A DNA stretch of 31,623 bases from a virus. Numbering within the stretch: the first letter of the stretch is position 1; each line of letters opens with the position of its first letter. Below, in pieces: positions 1 through 29,512 of this stretch. Below the pieces are notes generated by a model that was not told where the DNA came from, did no database searches, and saw only the letters and a program-made list of their open reading frames with translations. The stretch lies in the UHGV virus genome UHGV-0098804; one strand, written 5' to 3'. A program made the translations under genes and the position numbers.

Positions 1-150
1 CAGATGAAAAGCCCGCCATAGCCTGGCTGATTGCTAGAGCCTGCTCCTGCTGTGGGGTTTTCGGTGCTGGCGCTGCAGATGAAAAGCCCGCCATAGCCTG
101 GCTGATTGCTAGAGCCTGCTCCTGCTGTGGAGTTTTCGGAGTAGAAGGGG
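1..150 (-). repeat. In-frame 75-bp tandem direct repeat (2 copies, about 55 bp identical) inside the tape-measure-like ORF
   Basis: Positions 1-55 and 76-130 are identical (cagatgaaaagcccgccatagcctggctgattgctagagcctgctcctgctgtgg). Period 75 bp = 25 codons, encoding the repeated peptide PKTPQQEQALAISQAMAGFSS on the minus strand. Confidence 0.85.
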
Positions 151-3100
151 ATACTTGATCTCCCGGAAGTAGATCAATGATTTCTGTATCGTGATTAACA
201 GTGCGTTTTTGTTGTATGGCTGTTGCGATATCAGCCACTTGAGAAGCTTTTTTAAATCCAAAAGATTTACCGGTTAAGCCGGATATCTTTTCAGTAAGAG
301 CCTGATCCATTCCTTTCGCTTTTTCGGAAAGCGAAGATATAGAACCAAACGAAGTAGCCAACGCAAAATCCTTTACCAGGTCCAGACTTGTTCCAGCAAG
401 GCTGGTAGCCGCGCCGCCAAATAAATTACTTGCACCACTGATTCCGCTTTCATTTATTGCGATTAACCGCTCAAGCAAACTCGATGGAGAGCCGGTATTA
501 ACATCAGCGTTCTCTGGATTAATCGGTTGTGGTTGGTTACCTGTTTTTTGTGGCTTTTTGACTGCCTGGGCATGTTGTGCAACCTCAATTGGCTGTTGTG
601 TTGCTGTCGGAACGGCATTCAAAACTGGTTGAGCTGGAGATTTTCCATTAGCATATTTTACCTTGCGACCAACACTATATTGCGAATCGCGGGCAATTAG
701 CTGACCACCATTTTCTTTCTGAATTTTATTAATCCGCGCCAATGTTTCGTCAGAGAATTGTCCCTCCCATCGACCAGTGTTTGTGTTAAATGCTCCAAGT
801 GCGTTCTTAATGAACTCATTATTAACTGCCGGATTTCCGCCTTCTTTCGTCGCAATTGCACGAACTAATTGCGTCATAACCTCTGGTTTGCTGACATCTA
901 TTTTTTCATTAGGCGATACACCAAGATATTTACTGACGTTATCAATATATTGGTTAGTATTGTTCTCATTTGGCGGTGCCCATTTTGAAATGATGCTGGA
1001 TACCGTCTGTAACTTCTGATATCCCGCTGCGGCACTGGTGCCGTTGTAATAGCTGGAAACCTGGTTTGCCAGTGCCCTGATCCCTTCTTCAGGTGTGTTA
1101 AATCGCGCAAAACGTTGTTCACCTTTTGCATTTGGCGATTCCAGCGTCGCCCCTTCCTGGTTGGCAAAAACAAGATTGCCGAGATTATTATTTCGGTAAT
1201 TGCGGTTTTTAGCGTTGCTGCCGCCAATATTCAGATCCGCTGCAATGGTGTTGTTGGCAGGTGAACTAAATTCAGTTGGAGAAGTATACCCGTGCTCACC
1301 AACTCCATCCTCGCCATTACGCCCACCTTGTAATTGTTCACCTAGAGAATGAATCGCATCGACAGTTTTTTGGGTGCCGTCTTCAACAGCTTTTTTTACT
1401 TGTTTCGTGTTTTCGTCAGTGGATAAAAATGTATCCTTAAGGCTACCAAAAACAGATTTGGTGACATCTACCGCGCCGTTAACACCACGAGCAATATCTC
1501 CGGTATCAAAATTCTGAAGTTTTTCACCTGCTCTTTCAAATCCTAGCGCAGAAATTCCTTTCCCTATCAAGTTCGTTGCGCCCGACACCAAGCCCCCCAT
1601 ATCGAGCACATTAGCTGTTGCGTAAGCCGTTTTTTGCTGTTCGGATACAGCATCATCGTCACTTAATCCAAAGGCTGCCTTTTGCGCATCTGTATCAGTG
1701 TAACCATCTATAGCGTCATATCCCGCCATAGCCAGCGATCCGATGATAGGGATAGCTCTTGCAGCTGTAGAAGCAGCTGATTTAACACCTATTTTTGCAG
1801 CACTTTTGAGGGCTACGGATTCGGTTTTTTTCTTTGCAACAGTTTCACCTGTTTTAACTGTGGCCTCTTCGGCAACAACACCTGCTGGCTTAACTGCCTT
1901 TGCTGTGTTTTTTGTTTCTTTAGCAATACCCTTAGATGCGTCGCTTGTGGTGCTGATGTCTTTGGCTTTACTAACCTTTGTTTTAACAGTCTTTGCAGCT
2001 CCGGCACCAGCTCCAGCAGCAGCGGTTCCGGCAGCGGCTTTTTCACCAACAGAAAGGGCTTTTTTCCCCAGATTGCGACCTTTCCTTTTCGGTTTGTTCC
2101 GTTTATTTTTACCAGCCTGATCGCCAATATTGATTTTATTTCTTCTGCTTGCTCGATTTCTCCAGAGATCACTTAAGCCGAACTTATTCCCAGAAGATAC
2201 TGATTTGCGTAGCTTAACTACTTCGTCGGAGACATTTTCCAGACCATCAATTATTTTGTTGTCATTGGTCTGAAGAATTTTTGTTTGCTCTTCTACTGCT
2301 TGTGCTGATTTTGTCTCAACAGCATTATTAAATGCTGTTGCAGAGGTTGCTTTTTGAGTATTAACCACCGCCGGATAAGTGATAGCTGGAGATGTCGCTT
2401 TCGAAGGTGAAGCCTCACCTTTCCCCTTTTCTACCCATTCTTTAAGAGATTCTGCTTTACCTGTGATCTCTTTAGTAATGTCGTACATGCCGCGAGCAGC
2501 CATCCACAACGGACCACCAGCGCCAACACCTGCGGCATCTGTTAAAGACTCTTCACTGGAAGACTGATTGCCATCTACCCCTATAATGGAGCCTAATTTC
2601 CGGAGGAAGCCTTCTTGTAGTTTGGCGTCGGCCTTATGTGCTTTCTGCCATTCTTTTTTTCTGGCTATATCTTCGTTGTTTTTCTGGGATACAAAGCGTC
2701 CGTTACTATCCCGAAGCGGTCCTTTTTGGCTTTGGGGGGATTGTGGTTCAAGAGGAGCAGAATTAGCGGCTACTGGCACAGAACCTTTCAACTTTTGGGC
2801 TGACTGGCGTGATGACGCAAAATGAACGCGCTCTGATGTGTTGGTTGCAACAATGAGACGTTCTTCTCCGTTGTTGATCTGCGTCCTCCCTTTTTTCATC
2901 GGAAGGCGTTTTATATATGGGTTAGCTTGGGTGTTCTTGGCATCATCAGAGACATAGGGTTCGCTTGCTATGAGTCTACGGGATAGTCTTTGACTTACTT
3001 TACCTTGATTTTCACCAAGTTGAGTTATAGACCCTCTACCAGAGAGAATGGCGTCTTTGATCTCAGCAAGAGCGTTAAGTTCGTTTGTGCTCGCCCCCTG

Positions 3101-3235
3101 AATAGCGTCAATTATTGCGATACGGTCTTTATTCTCTTTCAAAATAACCTCTCTTTTGCCAGCGGCGATCAACGTTTCCCGGCTTGAGCTTTGTATTTTT
3201 CTTCCAGGGCTTTTGACATATGGAGTGCTCGCCAT
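1..3235 (-). CDS. Large virion protein, tail tape-measure-like; ATG at 3235, 3' end lies beyond window start (partial, >1077 aa)
   Basis: Hand translation of the minus strand from ATG 3235 runs without stop to position 1. The ORF track lists no >=60-aa minus ORF starting here, consistent with an ORF lacking an in-window stop. Gly/Ala/Lys-rich low-complexity stretches, an in-frame 25-aa tandem repeat and position next to tail genes suggest tape-measure or injection protein. An internal block (FARFNTPEEGIRALANQVSSYYNG...) looks like a conserved domain I cannot name. No strong SD before 3235. Confidence 0.55.
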   Translation of the reverse strand, partial: MASTPYVKSPGRKIQSSSRETLIAAGKREVILKENKDRIAIIDAIQGASTNELNALAEIKDAILSGRGSITQLGENQGKVSQRLSRRLIASEPYVSDDAKNTQANPYIKRLPMKKGRTQINNGEERLIVATNTSERVHFASSRQSAQKLKGSVPVAANSAPLEPQSPQSQKGPLRDSNGRFVSQKNNEDIARKKEWQKAHKADAKLQEGFLRKLGSIIGVDGNQSSSEESLTDAAGVGAGGPLWMAARGMYDITKEITGKAESLKEWVEKGKGEASPSKATSPAITYPAVVNTQKATSATAFNNAVETKSAQAVEEQTKILQTNDNKIIDGLENVSDEVVKLRKSVSSGNKFGLSDLWRNRASRRNKINIGDQAGKNKRNKPKRKGRNLGKKALSVGEKAAAGTAAAGAGAGAAKTVKTKVSKAKDISTTSDASKGIAKETKNTAKAVKPAGVVAEEATVKTGETVAKKKTESVALKSAAKIGVKSAASTAARAIPIIGSLAMAGYDAIDGYTDTDAQKAAFGLSDDDAVSEQQKTAYATANVLDMGGLVSGATNLIGKGISALGFERAGEKLQNFDTGDIARGVNGAVDVTKSVFGSLKDTFLSTDENTKQVKKAVEDGTQKTVDAIHSLGEQLQGGRNGEDGVGEHGYTSPTEFSSPANNTIAADLNIGGSNAKNRNYRNNNLGNLVFANQEGATLESPNAKGEQRFARFNTPEEGIRALANQVSSYYNGTSAAAGYQKLQTVSSIISKWAPPNENNTNQYIDNVSKYLGVSPNEKIDVSKPEVMTQLVRAIATKEGGNPAVNNEFIKNALGAFNTNTGRWEGQFSDETLARINKIQKENGGQLIARDSQYSVGRKVKYANGKSPAQPVLNAVPTATQQPIEVAQHAQAVKKPQKTGNQPQPINPENADVNTGSPSSLLERLIAINESGISGASNLFGGAATSLAGTSLDLVKDFALATSFGSISSLSEKAKGMDQALTEKISGLTGKSFGFKKASQVADIATAIQQKRTVNHDTEIIDLLPGDQVSPSTPKTPQQEQALAISQAMAGFSSAAPAPKTPQQEQALAISQAMAGFSS

Positions 3236-3289
3236 TGTGGCAATTGTTCAACGTCACTAACGGGCTGATATCCATACAGAGTCAGGTTG

Positions 3290-4111
3290 TTAATAATGGT
3301 TAGCCATCCATTCAGATCTAATTGATGGGATAAACTCTCTATTGAGAAAGGGGACGTACAGTGTGGTTGTCACATCTGCACCCTCCTTAGCGTTTTTGCA
3401 ATGTTGCGGAGGCAGGATCAGTCGGCTTGAGCCTCTCTCAATAGACATTTTCAGGCCGTGGCGTAGGTCTTTTTGCATAAGCTGTATGCGAGCCACAAGC
3501 GGGGTAAATTCGGTTTCAAGCGCCATGCTTTCAATGATGTCAAAGCGTCGGTTAGCGGCCTGCGTGAAGTCCTCCGGATCGTCTTCAAGCGCCGTGCATA
3601 AAGCGAGTTCAGCAATTCGCATCCGTGCTACGCCAGCACTGTATTCGGGAGTTTTCATATCAGGAAGTGACGCTCGCATTCGTTCAAGGAGTTCCGCGCC
3701 TTTCCCGGTTAATGGTTTAAGTATCCAGTCAGTTGGTACTCCATTTACTGGTACGTTGGTTTTCACGTAAGGAGGTACAGTGAGTATTTCTACTGTTTGG
3801 GCCAGGTCGCTCAGGTTAATATCTGCATGATGCGTATTACCGCAGTGACTGCACTCATAGGAGTAGGTCATTACTGCATCGGGGCGCGAATTAACAAATA
3901 TCCACCAAAGAGCAGTTCTGCGGTCCTGAACTGTCCAGTTAGCACTGTCGTTAATTTCACCATCCTGCATAGAGTTAAGGTACTCTGTAGTCGTTGCCTC
4001 ATCTTCTGCCGGGTTCAGGTCAGAATATTTCAGCGCATCCTTCACGGTAGGGGCGTGGAACTGAATTTCTGTCTCAGGACGGGAAGGCAATGGGAATTTT
4101 GGAATGTTCAA
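3290..4111 (-). CDS. Hypothetical phage protein (273 aa), TTG start
   Basis: Track ORF; GGAGG lies 7 nt upstream of the TTG at 4111; sits between the structural block and the tape-measure-like gene. No family recognised. Confidence 0.55.
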   Translation of the reverse strand: MNIPKFPLPSRPETEIQFHAPTVKDALKYSDLNPAEDEATTTEYLNSMQDGEINDSANWTVQDRRTALWWIFVNSRPDAVMTYSYECSHCGNTHHADINLSDLAQTVEILTVPPYVKTNVPVNGVPTDWILKPLTGKGAELLERMRASLPDMKTPEYSAGVARMRIAELALCTALEDDPEDFTQAANRRFDIIESMALETEFTPLVARIQLMQKDLRHGLKMSIERGSSRLILPPQHCKNAKEGADVTTTLYVPFLNREFIPSIRSEWMANHY

Positions 4112-4219
4112 TTATTCCTCCGAAAAGCAGGTATCTGTTCATTTTCCAGAGGATAGGGAGTGTGTGATTTGCGATGGGGATTGAATGAAGATCTTTGCCG
4201 GTCGAGAAGCGATTATTGA

Positions 4220-4262
4220 GGGTGATTTTTACACCTTAAGTGACGCTACTCACATATCCACA
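4220..4262. promoter_or_regulatory. Origin-proximal elements: inverted iteron-like copy (4220-4237) and DnaA-box-like ATATCCACA (4254-4262)
   Basis: agggtgatttttacacc is the reverse-complement form of the downstream iteron consensus; ATATCCACA matches the TTATCCACA DnaA box at 8 of 9 positions. Confidence 0.35.
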
Positions 4263-4356
4263 GAGTATTTTTATAAACCTTTTTCCATTTTTAATCCTTT
4301 TTAGATCCTTTTTAGGCGTCGCTGGAGCCAGTAGTGGCGCGGGCTGTAGAGGAGGC

Positions 4357-4476
4357 TGGTGTAAGATTTGCCCTCAATTAAATACGATCGGTGTAAGATT
4401 TGCCCTCAGAAGGTGTAAGATTTGCCCTCAAAAGGTGTAGTAATTGCCCTCAAAGTGGTGTAAAAATTGCCCTCAC
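4357..4476 (+). repeat. Five direct iterons (19-20 bp, consensus GGTGTAAGATTTGCCCTCA) upstream of and overlapping the repA start region
   Basis: Copies at 4357-4376, 4389-4408, 4411-4430, 4433-4452, 4457-4476 with about 22-bp spacing. Ends in ATTGCCCTCA like F/RepFIB-type iterons as I recall them. Confidence 0.85.
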
Positions 4477-4499
4477 CATTTGAAGGATCACACAGGGTT

Positions 4500-5255
4500 A
4501 TGAACAGAGCGGAATTAACAGCAAAAGCCGTCAGCCTGATTGAGTCAGCGACACCTATTAGTCGTAGTCTGGCACAAGCCAATGAGATCACGGAGGCTGC
4601 TTATCACCTGACTCGCGACCAAAAGCGACTGTTGTTTATTGTGGTGGGAAGACTTCGCTATGCTTCTAAGGATGGCGTTCTTGGTTCAGGTGCCTGTGAG
4701 TTGACGGTCAACGAATATGCAGAGATGTATAATTTGCCCTCTGCTGAAGCCAGCAAGGATATTCGTAAGGCCATTTCAGGGCTTAGCGAGAAGAAAGTTA
4801 CGATATATAACCCTGATGAATCGACCGAATCAGAAGACAGTTATGAGTCTTATCCCTGGATGATTAAGGATGCCTATTCACCACGGCGCGGGACTTACAT
4901 TATTCATCTTAATCCATATCTCATGCCGTTTTTTACTCTGCTTGATAAGAGATTCACAAGGCTGAATTTTACCGAAGTATCTCGCCTTACAAATCCTTAT
5001 TCTATGCGGCTTTATGAGTCCTTATGCCAGTACAGGAAGGATGATGGAAGCGGCTTTGCCATACTTGGCGTCGAATGGATGCGGGAGCGTTATGGGTTAC
5101 CAAAAAGCTATCAGCGGTATGCCGAATTTAAGAGAAGTTTTTTAACGAAGGCTGTAGCAGAGATTGAAAAAAATACAAAAATGAAAATAGTCTTCTCAGA
5201 GGTGACGGAAGGCGGCAAAGTTACCAGGATAAAATTTACCTATCAGCAGTCTTAA
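4500..5255 (+). CDS. repA: Iteron-binding replication initiator RepA (Rep_3-like), about 251 aa
   Basis: Track ORF 4467..5255; preferred start is the ATG at 4500 (MNRAELTAK...) because the first 11 codons fall inside the last iteron. N-terminal LIESA...LTRDQKRLLFIVVGRL resembles the Rep_3 initiator motif (recalled, not searched). Flanked by iterons on both sides. Confidence 0.8.
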   Translation: MNRAELTAKAVSLIESATPISRSLAQANEITEAAYHLTRDQKRLLFIVVGRLRYASKDGVLGSGACELTVNEYAEMYNLPSAEASKDIRKAISGLSEKKVTIYNPDESTESEDSYESYPWMIKDAYSPRRGTYIIHLNPYLMPFFTLLDKRFTRLNFTEVSRLTNPYSMRLYESLCQYRKDDGSGFAILGVEWMRERYGLPKSYQRYAEFKRSFLTKAVAEIEKNTKMKIVFSEVTEGGKVTRIKFTYQQS

Positions 5256-5546
5256 GGGCAATTTTTACACCCCTCTCAAGGTGTAGAATTTGCCCTTAAC
5301 GATCGGCAATTGAGGGCAATTTTTACATCTTGATTGCATGTATCTCGTTATTAGCAAGTTGTGTTTTTATATAACGTATTGATATGTAAGGATTATGTAA
5401 AAATCGCCCTCAACCAATATCGTGCGTATCGTGCATTCTTATTGCGCTTTTTTATTATCATTCACTGTGTTAACTGATTGATATTATTGAAATATGTAAA
5501 GAATGCCTTCATTGCTGATGGATTGATGATGTAAAAAATGCCCTCA
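5255..5546. repeat. Second iteron cluster downstream of repA (mixed orientation, partly degenerate) with an AT-rich stretch: candidate incompatibility/copy-control locus
   Basis: Iteron-like copies at about 5255-5272 (inverted), 5279-5298 (direct), 5312-5330 (inverted), 5393-5413, 5491-5510, 5528-5546 (degenerate direct); AT-rich 5340-5480. Confidence 0.6.
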
Positions 5547-5636
5547 ACATTGCGCTACCTTCCCTACCCGCTATCGTTGAGGTCGTGGGTGCTGACGGGA
5601 AATGAGCAACCCTCCAGCACACATAATTAAAGCTAT

Positions 5637-6344
5637 TCAGAATTTGATCACTCCACTCACAGCCCCCTTTAACGCGCTTGTAGCCATGCCAGCGGCACCG
5701 TTGACCAAAGCAGAAACACCTGAGCCTGCGGATGTGTATTTCTGGAAAGTGATTGGATATGACAAGAACTCTGACACCTGGTCTCGTGAGCGGGTGATTT
5801 CCCCAAGTTGAGTGGGGAATACGCGCATTTCCTCTTCCAGTTCTTTTCCGCCGTCCTGAGTTACCCGGTAGAGACGGATTTTCATCAGATATTCAGGAGG
5901 AAGGTTTATTGTTCCGTCCGGATTTGTTACGCGAGAACGACGTTCTTTGAACCAGTCCATGATCTTGCCATCTTCGGTATCCCTCACGGTCATAGTGACC
6001 GGTCCGACGCTAACATAGGTTGGCTTGCTGAATTCTACGCTGCCGATCACCTTGCTTTCTGTCTCGATGTTTCCACTGCTGTACGTGATATCCTTCACGA
6101 ACATATCGAAGCCGTTCAGGCCATCCACTTCAACTGTCCATTGCCATCCCTGGGCATAACGGATACGCATAGCGGCAGCAACAATATTTTTCCCGTAGGC
6201 AATATCGCTACTGTAATTCCCGCTTACCCCGCCGCCTGATATGGCTTTATCAAGAATGTCGCTAATGAGGTTGCTGGTGAATGATTTCGTGTTAAATGAC
6301 AATGCGGTGGTCAACGTTCTACCAACGCTGCTGAAAATACTCAC
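5637..6344 (-). CDS. Hypothetical phage structural protein (235 aa), GTG start
   Basis: Track ORF; GGAGG 7 nt upstream of the GTG at 6344; closely packed in the minus-strand structural operon. Confidence 0.5.
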   Translation of the reverse strand: MSIFSSVGRTLTTALSFNTKSFTSNLISDILDKAISGGGVSGNYSSDIAYGKNIVAAAMRIRYAQGWQWTVEVDGLNGFDMFVKDITYSSGNIETESKVIGSVEFSKPTYVSVGPVTMTVRDTEDGKIMDWFKERRSRVTNPDGTINLPPEYLMKIRLYRVTQDGGKELEEEMRVFPTQLGEITRSRDQVSEFLSYPITFQKYTSAGSGVSALVNGAAGMATSALKGAVSGVIKF

Positions 6345-12721: not shown

Positions 12722-12879
12722 GGTTAAGCCCTAAATTCGGGCGCGGCGTGAAGGTTCTTTTGACGCGCTAACAATACCAACTTTGTGATTTAGTCAATAG
12801 CATTAGTAAAATAAAATCTGTTAACACACGTGTTGTTATGTGGTTTAATTTTAATTTTCTAACACAAATCATTACGGTT

Positions 12880-15611: not shown

Positions 15612-15644
15612 TTGTTCTCAAATTGTTCTCAAATTGTTCTCGCT
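15612..15644 (+). repeat. parC-like tandem 11-bp repeats (ttgttctcaaa x2.7) upstream of parM; more ttctcaaa copies at about 15677 and 15763
   Basis: Direct repeats seen in sequence; in type II partition loci ParR binds tandem repeats flanking the parM promoter. Confidence 0.5.
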
Positions 15645-15795
15645 TCTATCCAAGTGCCCAGCAGGCGATTAAAGATATTCTCAAAACAACCTCAATTATG
15701 ACTCTTATTTATCTCTAATTATGTGGATTTTCGATGCCTTCTCTTTTAAAATCATGATTTGATTCTCAAATGTGTCTCAGAAGTGGAGCAAGAAG

Positions 15796-16752
15796 ATGCG
15801 CATTTTTATCGATGATGGTTCAACCAATATCAAAATGCTGTGGGAGCACGACGGGGAAACTCGCACTCACATCAGCCCTAACAGCTTTAAGCGCGGATGG
15901 TCAGCAACATTTGGTGCTGGCAAGCCGTTTAACTATGTCATTGACGACGAAAAGTATTCGTATGATTTGATCTCGCCAGATGTTCTGCCGACAAATAACG
16001 TGGAATGGCAATACAGCCCGCTTAACGTTCTTGCTGTGCATCATGCTTTGTTGACCAGTGGTATTGAGCCGCAAGAAGTAGAAATTGTGGTTACACTGCC
16101 ACTGGCAGAGTTTTACGACGACGATGCGCAATACAATCTCGCTAATATTGAGCGCAAAAAAGCCAGCCTGATGCGCCCTGTCACGCTGAATAAAGGCAAT
16201 GTATTCACAATTAAGAAAGTTACGGTACGACCGGAGTCTATTCCGGCAGGAATTGGCCTGTGCGACAATCTGAACCCTGCCCATTCTGTTCTTATCGTCG
16301 ATTTGGGTGGAACTACCCTTGATGTTTCAATGGTCGCCGGGCAAATGACGGCAGTTTCCCGTGTTTTTGGCGATTCGAATCTTGGTGTATCACTGGTCAC
16401 CAGGGAAGTAAGGCAAGCACTTGCCAGAGCCAATACCGAAACGTCAAATTACAATGTCGATCAGCTTATTATTAACCGCCACGATGAAGAATATCTGAAC
16501 GACAATATCAATGATCCATCCGCTATTGGTGATGTGAAAAAGGCTATTAGTACAAGCATTGACCGCCTGCGTACTCGCGTTCTTGATGTAATTAGCGACT
16601 TTAAAGGGTATACGCATGTCATGGTGATCGGCGGTGGCGCGCCGCTGGTGGCTGATGCAATTCGCGAGCACGTTAACATTCGTGATGATCGTTTCTTTGT
16701 GGCAGATGATCCGCAACTTGCTCTTGTTCATGGTCTGAAGGCTATCGGTTAA
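15796..16752 (+). CDS. parM: Actin-like plasmid segregation ATPase ParM/StbA
   Basis: Track ORF 15772..16752; ATG at 15796 with GGAG upstream preferred. MRIFIDDGSTNIKMLW...HISPNSFKRGW closely resembles the R1 ParM N-terminus as I recall it. Confidence 0.85.
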   Translation: MRIFIDDGSTNIKMLWEHDGETRTHISPNSFKRGWSATFGAGKPFNYVIDDEKYSYDLISPDVLPTNNVEWQYSPLNVLAVHHALLTSGIEPQEVEIVVTLPLAEFYDDDAQYNLANIERKKASLMRPVTLNKGNVFTIKKVTVRPESIPAGIGLCDNLNPAHSVLIVDLGGTTLDVSMVAGQMTAVSRVFGDSNLGVSLVTREVRQALARANTETSNYNVDQLIINRHDEEYLNDNINDPSAIGDVKKAISTSIDRLRTRVLDVISDFKGYTHVMVIGGGAPLVADAIREHVNIRDDRFFVADDPQLALVHGLKAIG

Positions 16753-16758
16753 CGAGGT

Positions 16759-17103
16759 GTGTCCATGCCCCAGGAACGTAAGAAAGTGATGATTTATCTT
16801 CGCCCGGAGGCTTATGCCAATGAAAAAGCCGCGAGTGAAAAGATAAAAAAACATAGCGATATGGCAAGAACTGCGCTTTTAGCTGGCCTTGCGCTGGGAG
16901 AAGTCGATAGTCGGCTGCCGGGATTGCTCGCCTCTCTTCTGACAAAAGAGAGTAACCCAGAGCTGATCCGGGGAATGCTGGCCTCGTTTCTGGAAGTGCC
17001 TGCTGCGACAGAGGAGCGCCCTGCTTCTGTAGCGCCGGGTAAAGAGCAGGTCGTTGTCGAAAGTGTGTCTGCGCGGAACCTGGCTAATTCTCTACCTGAT
17101 TGA
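16759..17103 (+). CDS. parR: ParR/StbB-like centromere-binding adaptor
   Basis: Immediately downstream of parM; ALLAGLAL...LLASLLTKE matches the recalled R1 ParR motif ALTAGLAL...LLCELLTKE. Confidence 0.8.
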   Translation: MSMPQERKKVMIYLRPEAYANEKAASEKIKKHSDMARTALLAGLALGEVDSRLPGLLASLLTKESNPELIRGMLASFLEVPAATEERPASVAPGKEQVVVESVSARNLANSLPD

Positions 17104-17149
17104 CAGCGAATGCGTTCTTGAAAGGCTGCAAATTGCAGCCTTTTTTGTA

Positions 17150-17340
17150 CCGCTTTAACACCAATTTGGTACCAATTTTACACCATATATGAGCCGCTTA
17201 TGTACTGGTGCATAAATGGTGCTGGTTTGGTGCTTTCCAGGTATAAACGTGTACCGGTATATTGGGGATTTGCTGCTATACTGGCAATATTGAGGATTGT
17301 GCCGTTATTGCACCGAAACGGTACCAAAGAGGTACCTTTT
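17150..17340. repeat. Repeat-rich intergenic region (multiple GGTACC / ccaattt / ggtgct motifs): candidate centromere and promoter for the ParA-type system
   Basis: Visible repeated short motifs (ccaatttggtaccaatttt; ggtgctggtttggtgct; acggtaccaaagaggtacc) upstream of the ParA-like gene. Confidence 0.3.
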
Positions 17341-17380
17341 CAGTGTTAAAGTGATGCTAAAACAACACCGAGGAAAGGAC

Positions 17381-18022
17381 ATGATTATCCTGGTAGCAAG
17401 TCAAAAGGGAGGCTGTGGCAAGTCAACCACCAGCGTCAATATTTGTGCCGAGCTGGCCCGAAAAAACAAAGATGTCGTCTTGATTGATGCTGATAAGCAG
17501 GGAACGGCAGCTCGATGGGCGTCAGACCGTAATTCGTCCGAAGTGACACCAGTTATTCATTGCGTCCAGAAGTTTGGAAATATTCGAGAAACTCTGCTCG
17601 ATCTTAACAATCGATATGAATACGTGGTTGTTGATACCGCAGGTCGTGATAGTAAAGAGATGCGCACAGGTATAACGGCGGCGGATATTCTATTGGTTCC
17701 ATTCAGGCCGTCTCAGCCAGATTTGGACACGCTGGCACACTTTGTTGAGGTGTTTGAAGAGGCTTTGGATCTGATGCCTAATCCCAATATTAAGGCGTGC
17801 GCAGTCTTAACTATGGCCCCGGCAAATCCGGTTGTGAATGAAGCAAATGAGGCCAAAGAGTATCTGGCAGAATATCCGCAACTGAAATTGCTGAAAACCA
17901 TTATTCGCGATCGCAAGGTTTACCGCGACTGCATGGCTGAAGGAAAGGGTGTTGTTGAGATGGATAACGGTAAGGCGAAAGGTGAAATTCAGATGTTAGT
18001 TAAGGAGTTGCTAAGTGATTAA
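17381..18022 (+). CDS. parA: ParA/ParF-family partition ATPase (Walker-type, about 213 aa)
   Basis: Track ORF 17297..18022; ATG at 17381 follows AGGAAAGGAC. Deviant Walker A KGGCGKST near the N-terminus. Confidence 0.8.
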   Translation: MIILVASQKGGCGKSTTSVNICAELARKNKDVVLIDADKQGTAARWASDRNSSEVTPVIHCVQKFGNIRETLLDLNNRYEYVVVDTAGRDSKEMRTGITAADILLVPFRPSQPDLDTLAHFVEVFEEALDLMPNPNIKACAVLTMAPANPVVNEANEAKEYLAEYPQLKLLKTIIRDRKVYRDCMAEGKGVVEMDNGKAKGEIQMLVKELLSD

Positions 18023-27682: not shown

Positions 27683-27976
27683 TTATGCGTGGAAAAATAA
27701 TGGACGGATGTTTGGGCGAGTGGTTTGCGAAGCAACCCAAAGCTCATACTGGGATTGCATACCGGTCCACATTTCGGCACTGGTTCCAAGAGCGGACTCC
27801 AGACGAAGTGCCATATCAGCAGATATACCTGCTTTTTCATTCAGAATTCGGGAAAGCGCCGTGCGAGTAATGCCTAATGCCGCAGCGGCGTCTGTGACTG
27901 ACATGTCTCCCAAATATTCACGAAGAACCGCGCCTGGATGCGCGGGATTATGCATACGACTCATAGTGTTCCTCAA
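27683..27976 (-). CDS. higA: HigA-like antitoxin (second copy, XRE HTH)
   Basis: [18 protein letters not shown]...[38 protein letters not shown] is the canonical HigA pattern; 4-bp overlap with the upstream toxin gene. Confidence 0.8.
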
Positions 27977-28254
27977 TGATAATCCTGATAGTCAACTAGA
28001 ATTGCGTCTTCTCCTTCAAATCGGAAGGTAAGTCGCCAGTTACCGTTTACCGATATTGCCCAGTGACCTTTAAGGTCCGCCCCCTTTAGAGGGTGCAATT
28101 CCCATCCAGGCGCAGACATATCGTCCGGGCGTTTAGCTGTATTAAGCGCAGTCAATTGAATGCGTAGCTTAACCGCATGTTTGGCCTGAATGCCTGCGGT
28201 TGAACCTGTCTTGAAAAAGCGTTCAAGCCCTTTATGGCGAAATGACTTAATCAA
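27973..28254 (-). CDS. higB: HigB/RelE-like toxin (second copy); probable TTG start giving [14 protein letters not shown]...
   Basis: [13 protein letters not shown]...[43 protein letters not shown] matches the HigB/RelE toxin pattern. Track ATG at 28317 adds 21 atypical residues; a TTG at 28254 with GGA upstream restores the conserved N-terminus. Start uncertain. Confidence 0.7.
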
Positions 28255-28590
28255 AATAATTCCATTCGTGCGTGCAACCTGTGTATATACGCTACACGCA
28301 GAAAGAGTAAAATGCAAGCACTATCCGTATAGACAGAGTTTTTTCGCCACCCTGGAATTTATTGACTGTCAACAAGTGACTTTCATTAATCTTAAGGCGT
28401 GGACCAGCTCGATAGTGAGCTGGGTGTTATTTACCGATCGAATGGATTCGAAAAGATGAATATTTTTAATAAGCTGATTGATTTATTGAATAAATTCATT
28501 AGTGCTTCTTTAACTCAGCAGGTATCCACGTCAGTGTTTTTGTTACTCTTCTACCTGGTATTGAGGGAGTTAACAAAGCTACTAATGTGA

Positions 28591-29244
28591 TCAAAGTATC
28601 ACGGTATCTTCATCAACTTCTTTCCCAGCCAGTGACTTTGGCTGGGAGGTGCCTGCTTTAACTTTTTCATGCCCAATAATGGACAGGAACGAAGCGAGTA
28701 TGCCTGTTTTTTGCTCTTTCTCGACTGTGCCGGTCATCTGCTCTACGTAATCTGCACTGGCAACGTTGTGGTATACGGTCGCGTAGCAACACAGGATCAT
28801 CAGAATATGCTCCGGCCTGATATCCTGCCAGTTCACCCTGTAGACTTCTTCTCCGTTACCGTTGTATTCGGTATCAACGATAGAGTCGGGGATTTCGAAA
28901 GCACCTTTGTTATTTTGCGGCAGGGATAATAGCTTCTGGAGTTTTAACTCTCTGTATCTTTCCATCCCGACGATGATTGCTGCTCTGCCATCGGCATGAC
29001 GGGTCTTGAGAGTCACCTGGCTTGCTCCGGTGCCAGCGGAGATCGTTGGCGTAATTTCGTCTACCAGTACCTTAAATTTGCTTTTCCGCAGGGCTGCTAT
29101 AGCTGGAGGAATTTTTTGCTTTTGCTCCAATGCTGACGCGGGAAGGGGTTTTACTTCGTTAATAATGAGAGCACCGTCTTTCAGTATTGCAGTGAGCATT
29201 TGAGGCTTGCTGGTGGTCAGGCTGAATATTGCGATCTTTTCCAT
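28591..29244 (-). CDS. Hypothetical protein (about 217 aa)
   Basis: Track ORF 28591..29286; GGAGGAAGG lies before the ATG at 29244 (MEKIAIF...), and the 14 codons upstream of it are read through terminator hairpin sequence. Confidence 0.5.
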   Translation of the reverse strand: MEKIAIFSLTTSKPQMLTAILKDGALIINEVKPLPASALEQKQKIPPAIAALRKSKFKVLVDEITPTISAGTGASQVTLKTRHADGRAAIIVGMERYRELKLQKLLSLPQNNKGAFEIPDSIVDTEYNGNGEEVYRVNWQDIRPEHILMILCCYATVYHNVASADYVEQMTGTVEKEQKTGILASFLSIIGHEKVKAGTSQPKSLAGKEVDEDTVIL

Positions 29245-29270
29245 TGTCCTTCCTCCACGGATGACGGATA

Positions 29271-29296
29271 CAAAAAAAGGCCGCACATGGCGGCCT
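29271..29296 (-). terminator. Intrinsic-terminator-like hairpin oriented for minus-strand transcripts, 5' of orf 28591..29244
   Basis: On the minus strand aggccgc catgt gcggcct is followed by TTTTTTT; no minus-strand gene is immediately upstream, so the role (insulator or relic) is unclear. Confidence 0.45.
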
Positions 29297-29512
29297 GCTT
29301 TGGCGTTATGACTCCCTACCGCGCTTCGGCTGAAAGTTAATCGTCAAAAGAACCTTCAACGGGAGCCGTTAGCGCGATGGATTATGTGCAGTTTGTGATT
29401 TCCAAAATAGTGTCAACCACTTTTTGTGGATTTTATTTTTTGACCGAAATTTGGCCTAAATCATGTTGATGTAGTTGATTGTTTTTGTAACATAAAACTT
29501 CATTTTGTTTAC

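Follow-up and report, generated by a model that had tools for sequence, protein, structure and literature searches.

A RepE-type iteron replicon in a variable slot between the pmgB and tub tail genes of a D6-like phage-plasmid

Resistance genes can be carried by D6-like and P1-like elements, which are common in Escherichia coli, Salmonella and Shigella. Escherichia phage D6 typifies the second subgroup of P1-like phage-plasmids, in which replication is separated from partition by 14 conserved genes (PMC7969092), and iterons beside 'repB' have been mentioned for a D6-like Salmonella plasmid, pYU39_89 (PMC6799933). In the P1 subgroup (P1-g1), the IncY and p0111 initiators alternate at one position, which has been read as an escape from incompatibility (PMC7969092), and frequent IncY/p0111 switching has been described (bioRxiv 10.1101/2024.02.02.574330). 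Here we analyse the iteron replicon around positions 4220-5546 of the UHGV virus genome UHGV-0098804, a stretch of 31,623 nucleotides (the window), in which the initiator gene repA lies on the plus strand between minus-strand genes. The presence of a replicon in a D6-like element is already annotated and published: in the GenBank record of D6, orf42 has the same flanking genes in the same orientation and is listed as a putative initiator of plasmid replication, and the replicon of plasmid prophages of the D6-like kind, pYU39_89 among them, differs in nothing essential from that of the window. We found no prior description of the origin anatomy, the affinity to RepE, the variation at the slot or the scars of replacement in the literature covered, which did not include Gilcrease & Casjens 2018, a source that may contain more. 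These additions, which comprise the kinship to RepE, a tail-block slot with three alternative replicons, orphan iterons and a predicted late promoter next to the cassette, are of moderate interest to specialists and unsurprising given what P1-like elements do, and they leave the current understanding of how iteron replicons work unchanged. The replicon matters, as it decides which plasmids and phage-plasmids can coexist with a D6-like element.

Our reading, to which we give a probability of roughly 0.85, is that the locus is the low-copy replicon that maintains a D6-like phage-plasmid of the P1 family as a plasmid in its prophage state, that it is of the mini-F ori2/RepE kind, and that it sits in a fixed slot between operons. 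By near-identity and synteny with phage D6, the window is part of a D6-like (P1-g2) phage-plasmid: the region 4100-5700 is 98.6% identical in nucleotide sequence to D6 (NC_050154 / MF356679), dozens of ~90-kb non-mobilizable plasmids with E. coli, Salmonella or Shigella as host match it at 99% identity or more, and the whole window aligns with positions 41.6-74.7 kb of the D6 record with three gaps, the glnS block of D6 being absent from the window. The sole sizeable open reading frame (ORF) in 4112-5636 is repA. Around it, the DnaA-box-like site, five upstream iterons, mixed-orientation downstream iterons and AT-rich stretch that a preliminary description of this DNA had listed are all present at the positions it had assigned to them (Table 1).

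The D6 record carries the comment 'similar to P1 gene repA?' for this gene, but a BLASTP comparison of RepA with P1 RepA gave no significant similarity (E=0.057). The WH1 and WH2 winged-helix domains (PF01051 and PF21205) are both present with scores beyond the curated cut-offs, the match to the RepE structures in the PDB (1REP/2Z9O) has an E value of ~1e-73, and outside the D6-like group the protein comes nearest to RepE initiators from IncFIA (F-type) replicons, with 50% amino acid identity over 90% of the length. The protein scores 280.6 bits against the NCBIfam RepE equivalog (NF010305), below the cut-off of 342, where a genuine IncFIA RepE reaches 537.8. From these sequence comparisons, we conclude that the initiator is a homologue of mini-F RepE and not a relative of P1 RepA, yet is not F RepE proper. 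The dominant D6-type replicon is a relative of RepE and not of the IncY or p0111 type, which bears on replicon typing; MOB-suite assigns such plasmids rep_cluster_1704 as their only type.

RepA of the window is 100% identical to that of D6. We compared the region with two diverged relatives, E. fergusonii pEF-4 and E. coli CP104667, whose flanking tail genes show 75-90% nucleotide identity. RepA is 99.6% (pEF-4) and 98.4% (CP104667) identical at a synonymous divergence (dS) of 0.46-0.61 in repA, and the ratio of non-synonymous to synonymous divergence (dN/dS) is 0.003-0.019, with 0.003 found at the dS of 0.61. The iteron-like site inside repA is near-unchanged in both relatives, its lone substitution being the last base in pEF-4 (dS ~0.5). 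The repA of the p0111-type elements described below likewise holds an internal iteron-like site.

The upstream region has the features of a Rep_3-type iteron theta replicon, namely phased direct repeats beside rep together with a DnaA box and an AT-rich element. A weight matrix was built from the five upstream iterons and scanned over the 31.6 kb window. It gave 12 matches of at least 16 bits, every one inside 4217-5546; the other 30 kb contain only two weak matches (11-13 bits), and shuffled sequence yields 0.63 matches at 8 bits or above. Reading towards repA, an inverted iteron stands on the outer side of the DnaA box and is followed by the AT-rich block (GC content 0.27 at 4260-4319, with a GATC at 4304), a GC-rich spacer and the five direct iterons, whose spacing is 32 bp for the first gap and 22-23 bp thereafter. 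The last of them ends 24 nt 5' of the repA ATG. In pEF-4 and CP104667 the five iterons are 95-98% conserved and the inverted iteron, the DnaA box and the AT-rich repeats are likewise near-invariant, which makes this the most conserved non-coding block of the region. In our own reading, the iterons may also carry extended -10-like elements (TGnAAAAAT). Rfam at gathering thresholds gave no matches.

By analogy with the F and P1 systems, we suggest that the element replicates by a theta-type iteron mechanism of the mini-F ori2/RepE kind. RepA monomers would bind the five phased iterons beside the DnaA box and the AT-rich region and, with host DnaA, open the origin. The iterons reach close to the start codon, and RepA bound there probably also represses its own gene, as in P1. 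Downstream of repA, the mixed-orientation iterons and the two integration host factor (IHF) sites probably serve to titrate or handcuff RepA and so set the copy number, and these iterons would determine incompatibility in the manner of P1 incA and F incC. Full IHF-consensus matches number three in the whole window, two of them in this array. In the diverged relatives, the spacers of the downstream region are scrambled (52-65% identity), yet each iteron and both IHF sites are kept, the pattern expected of protein-binding sites. An inverted iteron pair spans the repA stop codon and was considered as an F-like operator; it was rejected, as its half-sites face the opposite way and the pair is at the 3' end of the gene.

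The downstream array also contains AT-rich stretches (GC 0.27-0.30 at 5340-5399 and 5430-5519), and, given its iterons and IHF sites, it may act as an additional origin or even be the true one. In the latter case, the functional origin would be the downstream AT-rich region (~5330-5520), and the upstream iterons, which abut the start codon as an operator would, would be no more than the operator of repA. The two IHF sites are perfect, each lies 10-20 nt before an iteron, and they are conserved in the diverged relatives, all of which would suit an origin. We nevertheless think this unlikely based on the following observations: the minimal F ori2 can be aligned base-for-base with the DnaA box, the AT-rich 11-mers and the iterons upstream of repA, the downstream side lacks any DnaA box with at most one mismatch, the downstream iterons are irregularly spaced with freely evolving spacers as in P1 incA, and, in the p0111-type elements, replacement retained the downstream array while the upstream part and repA were dropped. 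We therefore keep the origin upstream of repA in our model.

Table 1. Coordinates of the replicon, its binding sites and neighbouring genes in the window
Feature	Position	Strand	Basis or remark
Replicon cassette, defined by comparison	4168-5609	+	part swapped for unrelated sequence in D6-like plasmids with other replicons
Predicted D6-type late promoter for pmgB-sit, AAATCACACACTCCCTATCCT	4150-4170	-	upstream box 4163-4170; -10-like TATCCT 4150-4155
Inverted iteron, outer side of DnaA box	4217-4235	-	21.6 bits; invariant in two diverged relatives
DnaA box, ATATCCACA	4254-4262	+	8/9 match to TTATCCACA; invariant in diverged relatives; aligns with F ori2 DnaA boxes
AT-rich, presumed DNA-unwinding region with ~11-nt repeats (TTTTTAGATCC)	4263-4315	+	Tandem Repeats Finder (TRF) period 11; aligns with F ori2 AT-rich region
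Five direct 19-bp origin iterons (GGTGTAAGATTTGCCCTCA and variants)	4358-4376, 4390-4408, 4412-4430, 4434-4452, 4457-4475	+	matrix; repeat finding
repA, 251-aa Rep_3 initiator, mini-F RepE homologue	4500-5255	+	Pfam Rep3_N 2.9e-29, Rep3_C 9e-16
Iteron-like site within repA (GATGTATAATTTGCCCTCT)	4724-4742	+	16.7 bits
Downstream control-type iterons	5253-5271 (-), 5280-5298 (+), 5311-5329 (-), 5394-5412 (+), 5493-5511 (+, weak), 5528-5546 (+)	mixed	iteron matrix
Two IHF-consensus sites	5372-5384, 5471-5483	-	full consensus
Orphan P1-type iteron, degenerate	5585-5599	+	inverted relative to perfect copy
Orphan P1/IncY-type iteron, perfect core ATGTGTGCTGGAGGG	5610-5624	-	match to P1 incA/incC iterons
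sit homologue, tail ruler / injection transglycosylase	2-3235	-	cut by left window end; phrog_7182 E=0
pmgB homologue, morphogenesis gene, left flank of slot	3290-4111	-	phrog_1854 1e-134
tub homologue, tail tube, right flank of slot	5637-6344	-	phrog_1842 4e-98; D6 orf43 and P1 tub annotation
ParM/StbA	15772-16752		followed by StbB; ParM/StbA-StbB pair spans 15772-17103
ParA/MinD-type ATPase (ParA-like)	17297-18022

The replicon is flanked by tail genes. That the neighbouring minus-strand ORFs are virion genes had been proposed, and the homology of Sit, PmgB and Tub together with the annotation of D6 and P1 bears this out. The 'tape-measure-like gene' of the preliminary description is the sit homologue, which runs off the left window end; it also matches a tape-measure PHROG, and the annotation of D6 orf40 and P1 sit concurs. 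Its reading frame starts at the ATG at 3235 and stays open as far as the edge of the window. The start annotated in D6 corresponds to position 3275, in another frame, and a 75-nt tandem repeat (x1.9) lies within the gene at window positions 1-139. The pmgB homologue is 98.5% identical to D6 orf41 and 40% identical to P1 PmgB, and it has a weak Pfam T4_baseplate match and a weak resemblance to baseplate hubs. The minus-strand homologues of P1 genes are, in order, sit, pmgB, tub, pmgC, bplB, pmgG, 21, 22 (sheath), an Ig-domain gene and 23 (major capsid), tub being the final gene of the 23-to-tub block.

By comparing the regions upstream of late genes, we derived a D6 late motif, AAATCACA-N7-TAnnnT, which we predict to be the D6 late promoter. 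Six strict matches occur in the whole of D6, all on the late-gene strand, against 1.6 in shuffles (0/300 shuffles reach six). Five of these precede the homologues of prt, ddrB, lydA, pmgB and 23 by 30-60 nt, and the sixth precedes darB by ~50 nt; a slightly relaxed motif gives extra matches upstream of R, mat and the orf16 lysozyme gene, and the form AAATCACAnACTnnn(T/C)AnnnT covers all nine genes. Several of the D6 motif positions correspond to annotated late promoters of P1 (LPs, LPsit and LP23). In the window, there are three matches where 0.19 are expected, at 4150-4170(-), 12771-12791(-) and 29381-29401(-), upstream of pmgB, of gene 23 and of the minus-strand ORF 28591-29286, which stands where D6 has mat. 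The P1 late-promoter consensus itself (AAGTnACTT-N4-TAnAAT) has fewer matches than chance and none near the cassette. Since a late promoter is predicted for pmgB itself, right beside the cassette, we predict that the replicon lies between two late units, 23-to-tub and pmgB-to-16, and not inside one operon. The claim that the replicon splits a morphogenesis module is thus right in that it stands between tail genes, but what it separates are two late units. Placed after the stop codon of tub and immediately before the predicted pmgB-sit promoter, the cassette would neighbour late units that should both be silent in the lysogen.

Comparison of synteny with related elements argues well for the modular acquisition of the replicon, as had been suggested. 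The tub and pmgB genes of P1 are separated by 14 bp and belong to a single late operon, which LPsit drives from upstream of pmgC, and the two genes are also adjacent in Cronobacter phage JK004 and a Vibrio plasmid relative. In D6-like elements, the slot between them holds one of three replicons: the RepE-like type, an IncY/P1-like type (RepA 84% identical to P1 RepA, with P1-type iterons) and a p0111-like type (RepA 85% identical to RepB of pO111_2, NC_013370, the source of the p0111 replicon type). The rep gene is always on the strand opposite to the tail genes. Among the 22 D6-like loci in IMG/VR, 17 are RepE-type, three IncY-like and two p0111-like, none is empty, and all have the one orientation. 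In PLSDB, ~119 records have a D6-like pmgB; ~108 of them carry this RepA, nine an IncY-like junction and two a p0111-like junction. Homology between the window and CP057047 (IncY-like type) ends at 4167 and restarts at 5610, and homology to NZ_CP085065 (p0111-like type) ends at ~4170; overall, the backbone homology breaks at 4167-4170 on the left and 5610-5636 on the right. The arrangement had been called unusual. This holds only in a relative sense, as it is the norm across the D6 lineage and P1 also breaks into the same morphogenesis block two genes away, where immI and the lytic-replicon segment lie between bplB and pmgC and are followed by LPsit.

The close spacing of tub and pmgB in P1, within a single late operon, and the failure to find a terminator after tub would also suit a discrete mobile insertion, by transposition or site-specific integration, into a continuous tub-pmgB operon, with structural transcription obliged to read through the replicon. 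Neither a transposase nor an integrase was found, terminal repeats or a target duplication are not evident at 4168/5609, and the terminal inverted matches of the replicon region are iterons; a transposon origin was rejected on these grounds. A Citrobacter freundii plasmid (NZ_CP114569) with the D6 gene order and a pmgB 58% identical already has a rep-less gap of 310 bp, within which lies a close variant of the late motif, and the pmgB motif abuts the left cassette edge in every cassette type. Breakpoints that coincide with the edge of the late promoter and with a retained iteron fit recombinational replacement of cassettes, and we regard a mobile insertion as quite improbable. The Citrobacter gap (locus 4191-4500) is packed with TGTACAT and TATTTACA repeats, in a plasmid without an assigned replicon type; an initiator whose gene lies elsewhere might bind these repeats.

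Earlier occupants of the slot appear to have left traces. Two P1-type iterons, a perfect and a degenerate one, lie in the window outside the working replicon. The perfect copy lies 12 nt from the tub stop codon and is position-homologous to the final iteron of the IncY-like cassette. A P1-type orphan iteron is found in 15/15 main-clade RepE-type slots from IMG/VR, and the E. fergusonii plasmid keeps two or three P1-type iterons. The orphans at 5585-5624 look like a scar left by a P1-type replicon that once stood here. The two orphans can pair into a hairpin after tub, which was considered as a terminator and rejected, as shuffled sequence folds equally well (z = -0.87) and a U-run is lacking. 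The p0111-type elements (NZ_CP085065: L007 5000-5220; also L030 and L031) in turn keep the last 13 nt of a RepE-type repA and four or five RepE-type downstream iterons, which are 97% identical to those of the closest RepE-type relative. The simplest reading of these remnants would be that the slot was occupied first by a P1-type replicon, then by the RepE-type and then, in one sub-lineage, by the p0111-type. One backbone may thus carry any of three replicons at one site while old iterons persist, which bears on the prediction of incompatibility and on the history of the element. A bolder and doubtful extension is that the pmgB-tub gap is a dedicated replicon-exchange slot across the P1 family and that the orphan iterons are kept for incompatibility against competitors bearing the old replicon. 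If true, the element would exclude related phage-plasmids besides escaping incompatibility.

Several points weigh against our reading of the locus as a mini-F-like maintenance replicon between late units. A scan for the sigma-70 consensus gave no convincing promoter for repA. F ori2 has two DnaA boxes, the D6-type origin a single one that matches at 8/9 positions. The inverted-repeat operator segment of F has no counterpart in the D6-type origin alignment, so the mode of autoregulation is a guess. The search for a terminator between tub and the cassette was negative, so late transcripts may enter the cassette against repA. The possible origin activity of the downstream array, discussed above, belongs here too, and the order of replacement is an argument of parsimony from short remnants, not proof. 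Even so, it is very improbable that the cassette is a decaying remnant or passenger in an element maintained by another replicon or by integration: partition genes do lie ~10 kb away and not beside the replicon, and the slot does bear relics of other replicons, but RepA is under extreme purifying selection, all iterons are conserved, RepA is found at 95% identity or more in 108 plasmid records that are mostly complete circular plasmids of ~90 kb, the D6 annotation has no other plasmid initiator, only repL, and no slot in the IMG/VR loci is empty.

A perfect 11-nt tandem repeat (TTGTTCTCAAA x2.7) at 15612-15641, between a PAAR-like upfC homologue and the ParM/StbA-StbB pair, is probably a parC-type centromere. 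The segment 17143-18454 has no D6 counterpart, D6 carrying a ParA-like gene and glnS there; it holds a 22-nt repeat x2 (17143-17185) and the ParA/MinD-type ATPase, forms a second partition-like locus and lacks a glutaminyl-tRNA synthetase. At 27973-28317(-), there is a gene for a HigB-like toxin of the RelE family (Pfam 1.2e-20), which presumably belongs to the HigBA addiction module reported for D6.

Compared with the named replicons, the D6-type replicon is closest in sequence to mini-F. Its origin core aligns with mini-F ori2 at the DnaA box, TATTTTTATAA, the AT-rich motif TTTTTAGATC and the iteron core AAATTGCCCTCA, its RepA shares the fold family of the RepE structures, and in each system iteron arrays flank rep on both sides. 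Mini-F differs in having two DnaA boxes and four origin iterons (D6-type: one and five), an inverted-repeat operator that sets the iterons ~95 nt from rep (D6-type: 24 nt), five downstream iterons in one orientation (D6-type: mixed orientation with IHF sites) and an adjacent sopABC, of which there is none beside the D6-type replicon. In layout, the R replicon of P1 (oriR/incC-repA-incA, IncY) is much alike, with a DnaA box, an AT- and GATC-rich region, five origin iterons reaching rep and a mixed-orientation control array. The P1 repA promoter lies inside the origin iterons, and the D6-type spacing is closer to P1 in this respect. The P1 replicon also has the same role, in a phage-plasmid of the same family, and also lies just upstream of a late promoter (LP23). 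Its iteron sequence, however, differs, and it is located beside parAB and gene 23, whereas the D6-type replicon lies between pmgB and tub, on the strand opposite to its neighbouring late genes, and has no linked parA-parB-parS module, its nearest partition genes being more than 10 kb off. What is shared with P1 is a likeness in working and not membership of a family. The IncY/p0111 alternation of P1-g1 likewise puts alternative initiators at one position in related phage-plasmids. That alternation occurs at another locus, whereas in D6-like elements it takes place inside the tail-gene block, unlinked to partition, adds a third and dominant RepE-like type, and leaves behind orphan iterons of the displaced replicon.

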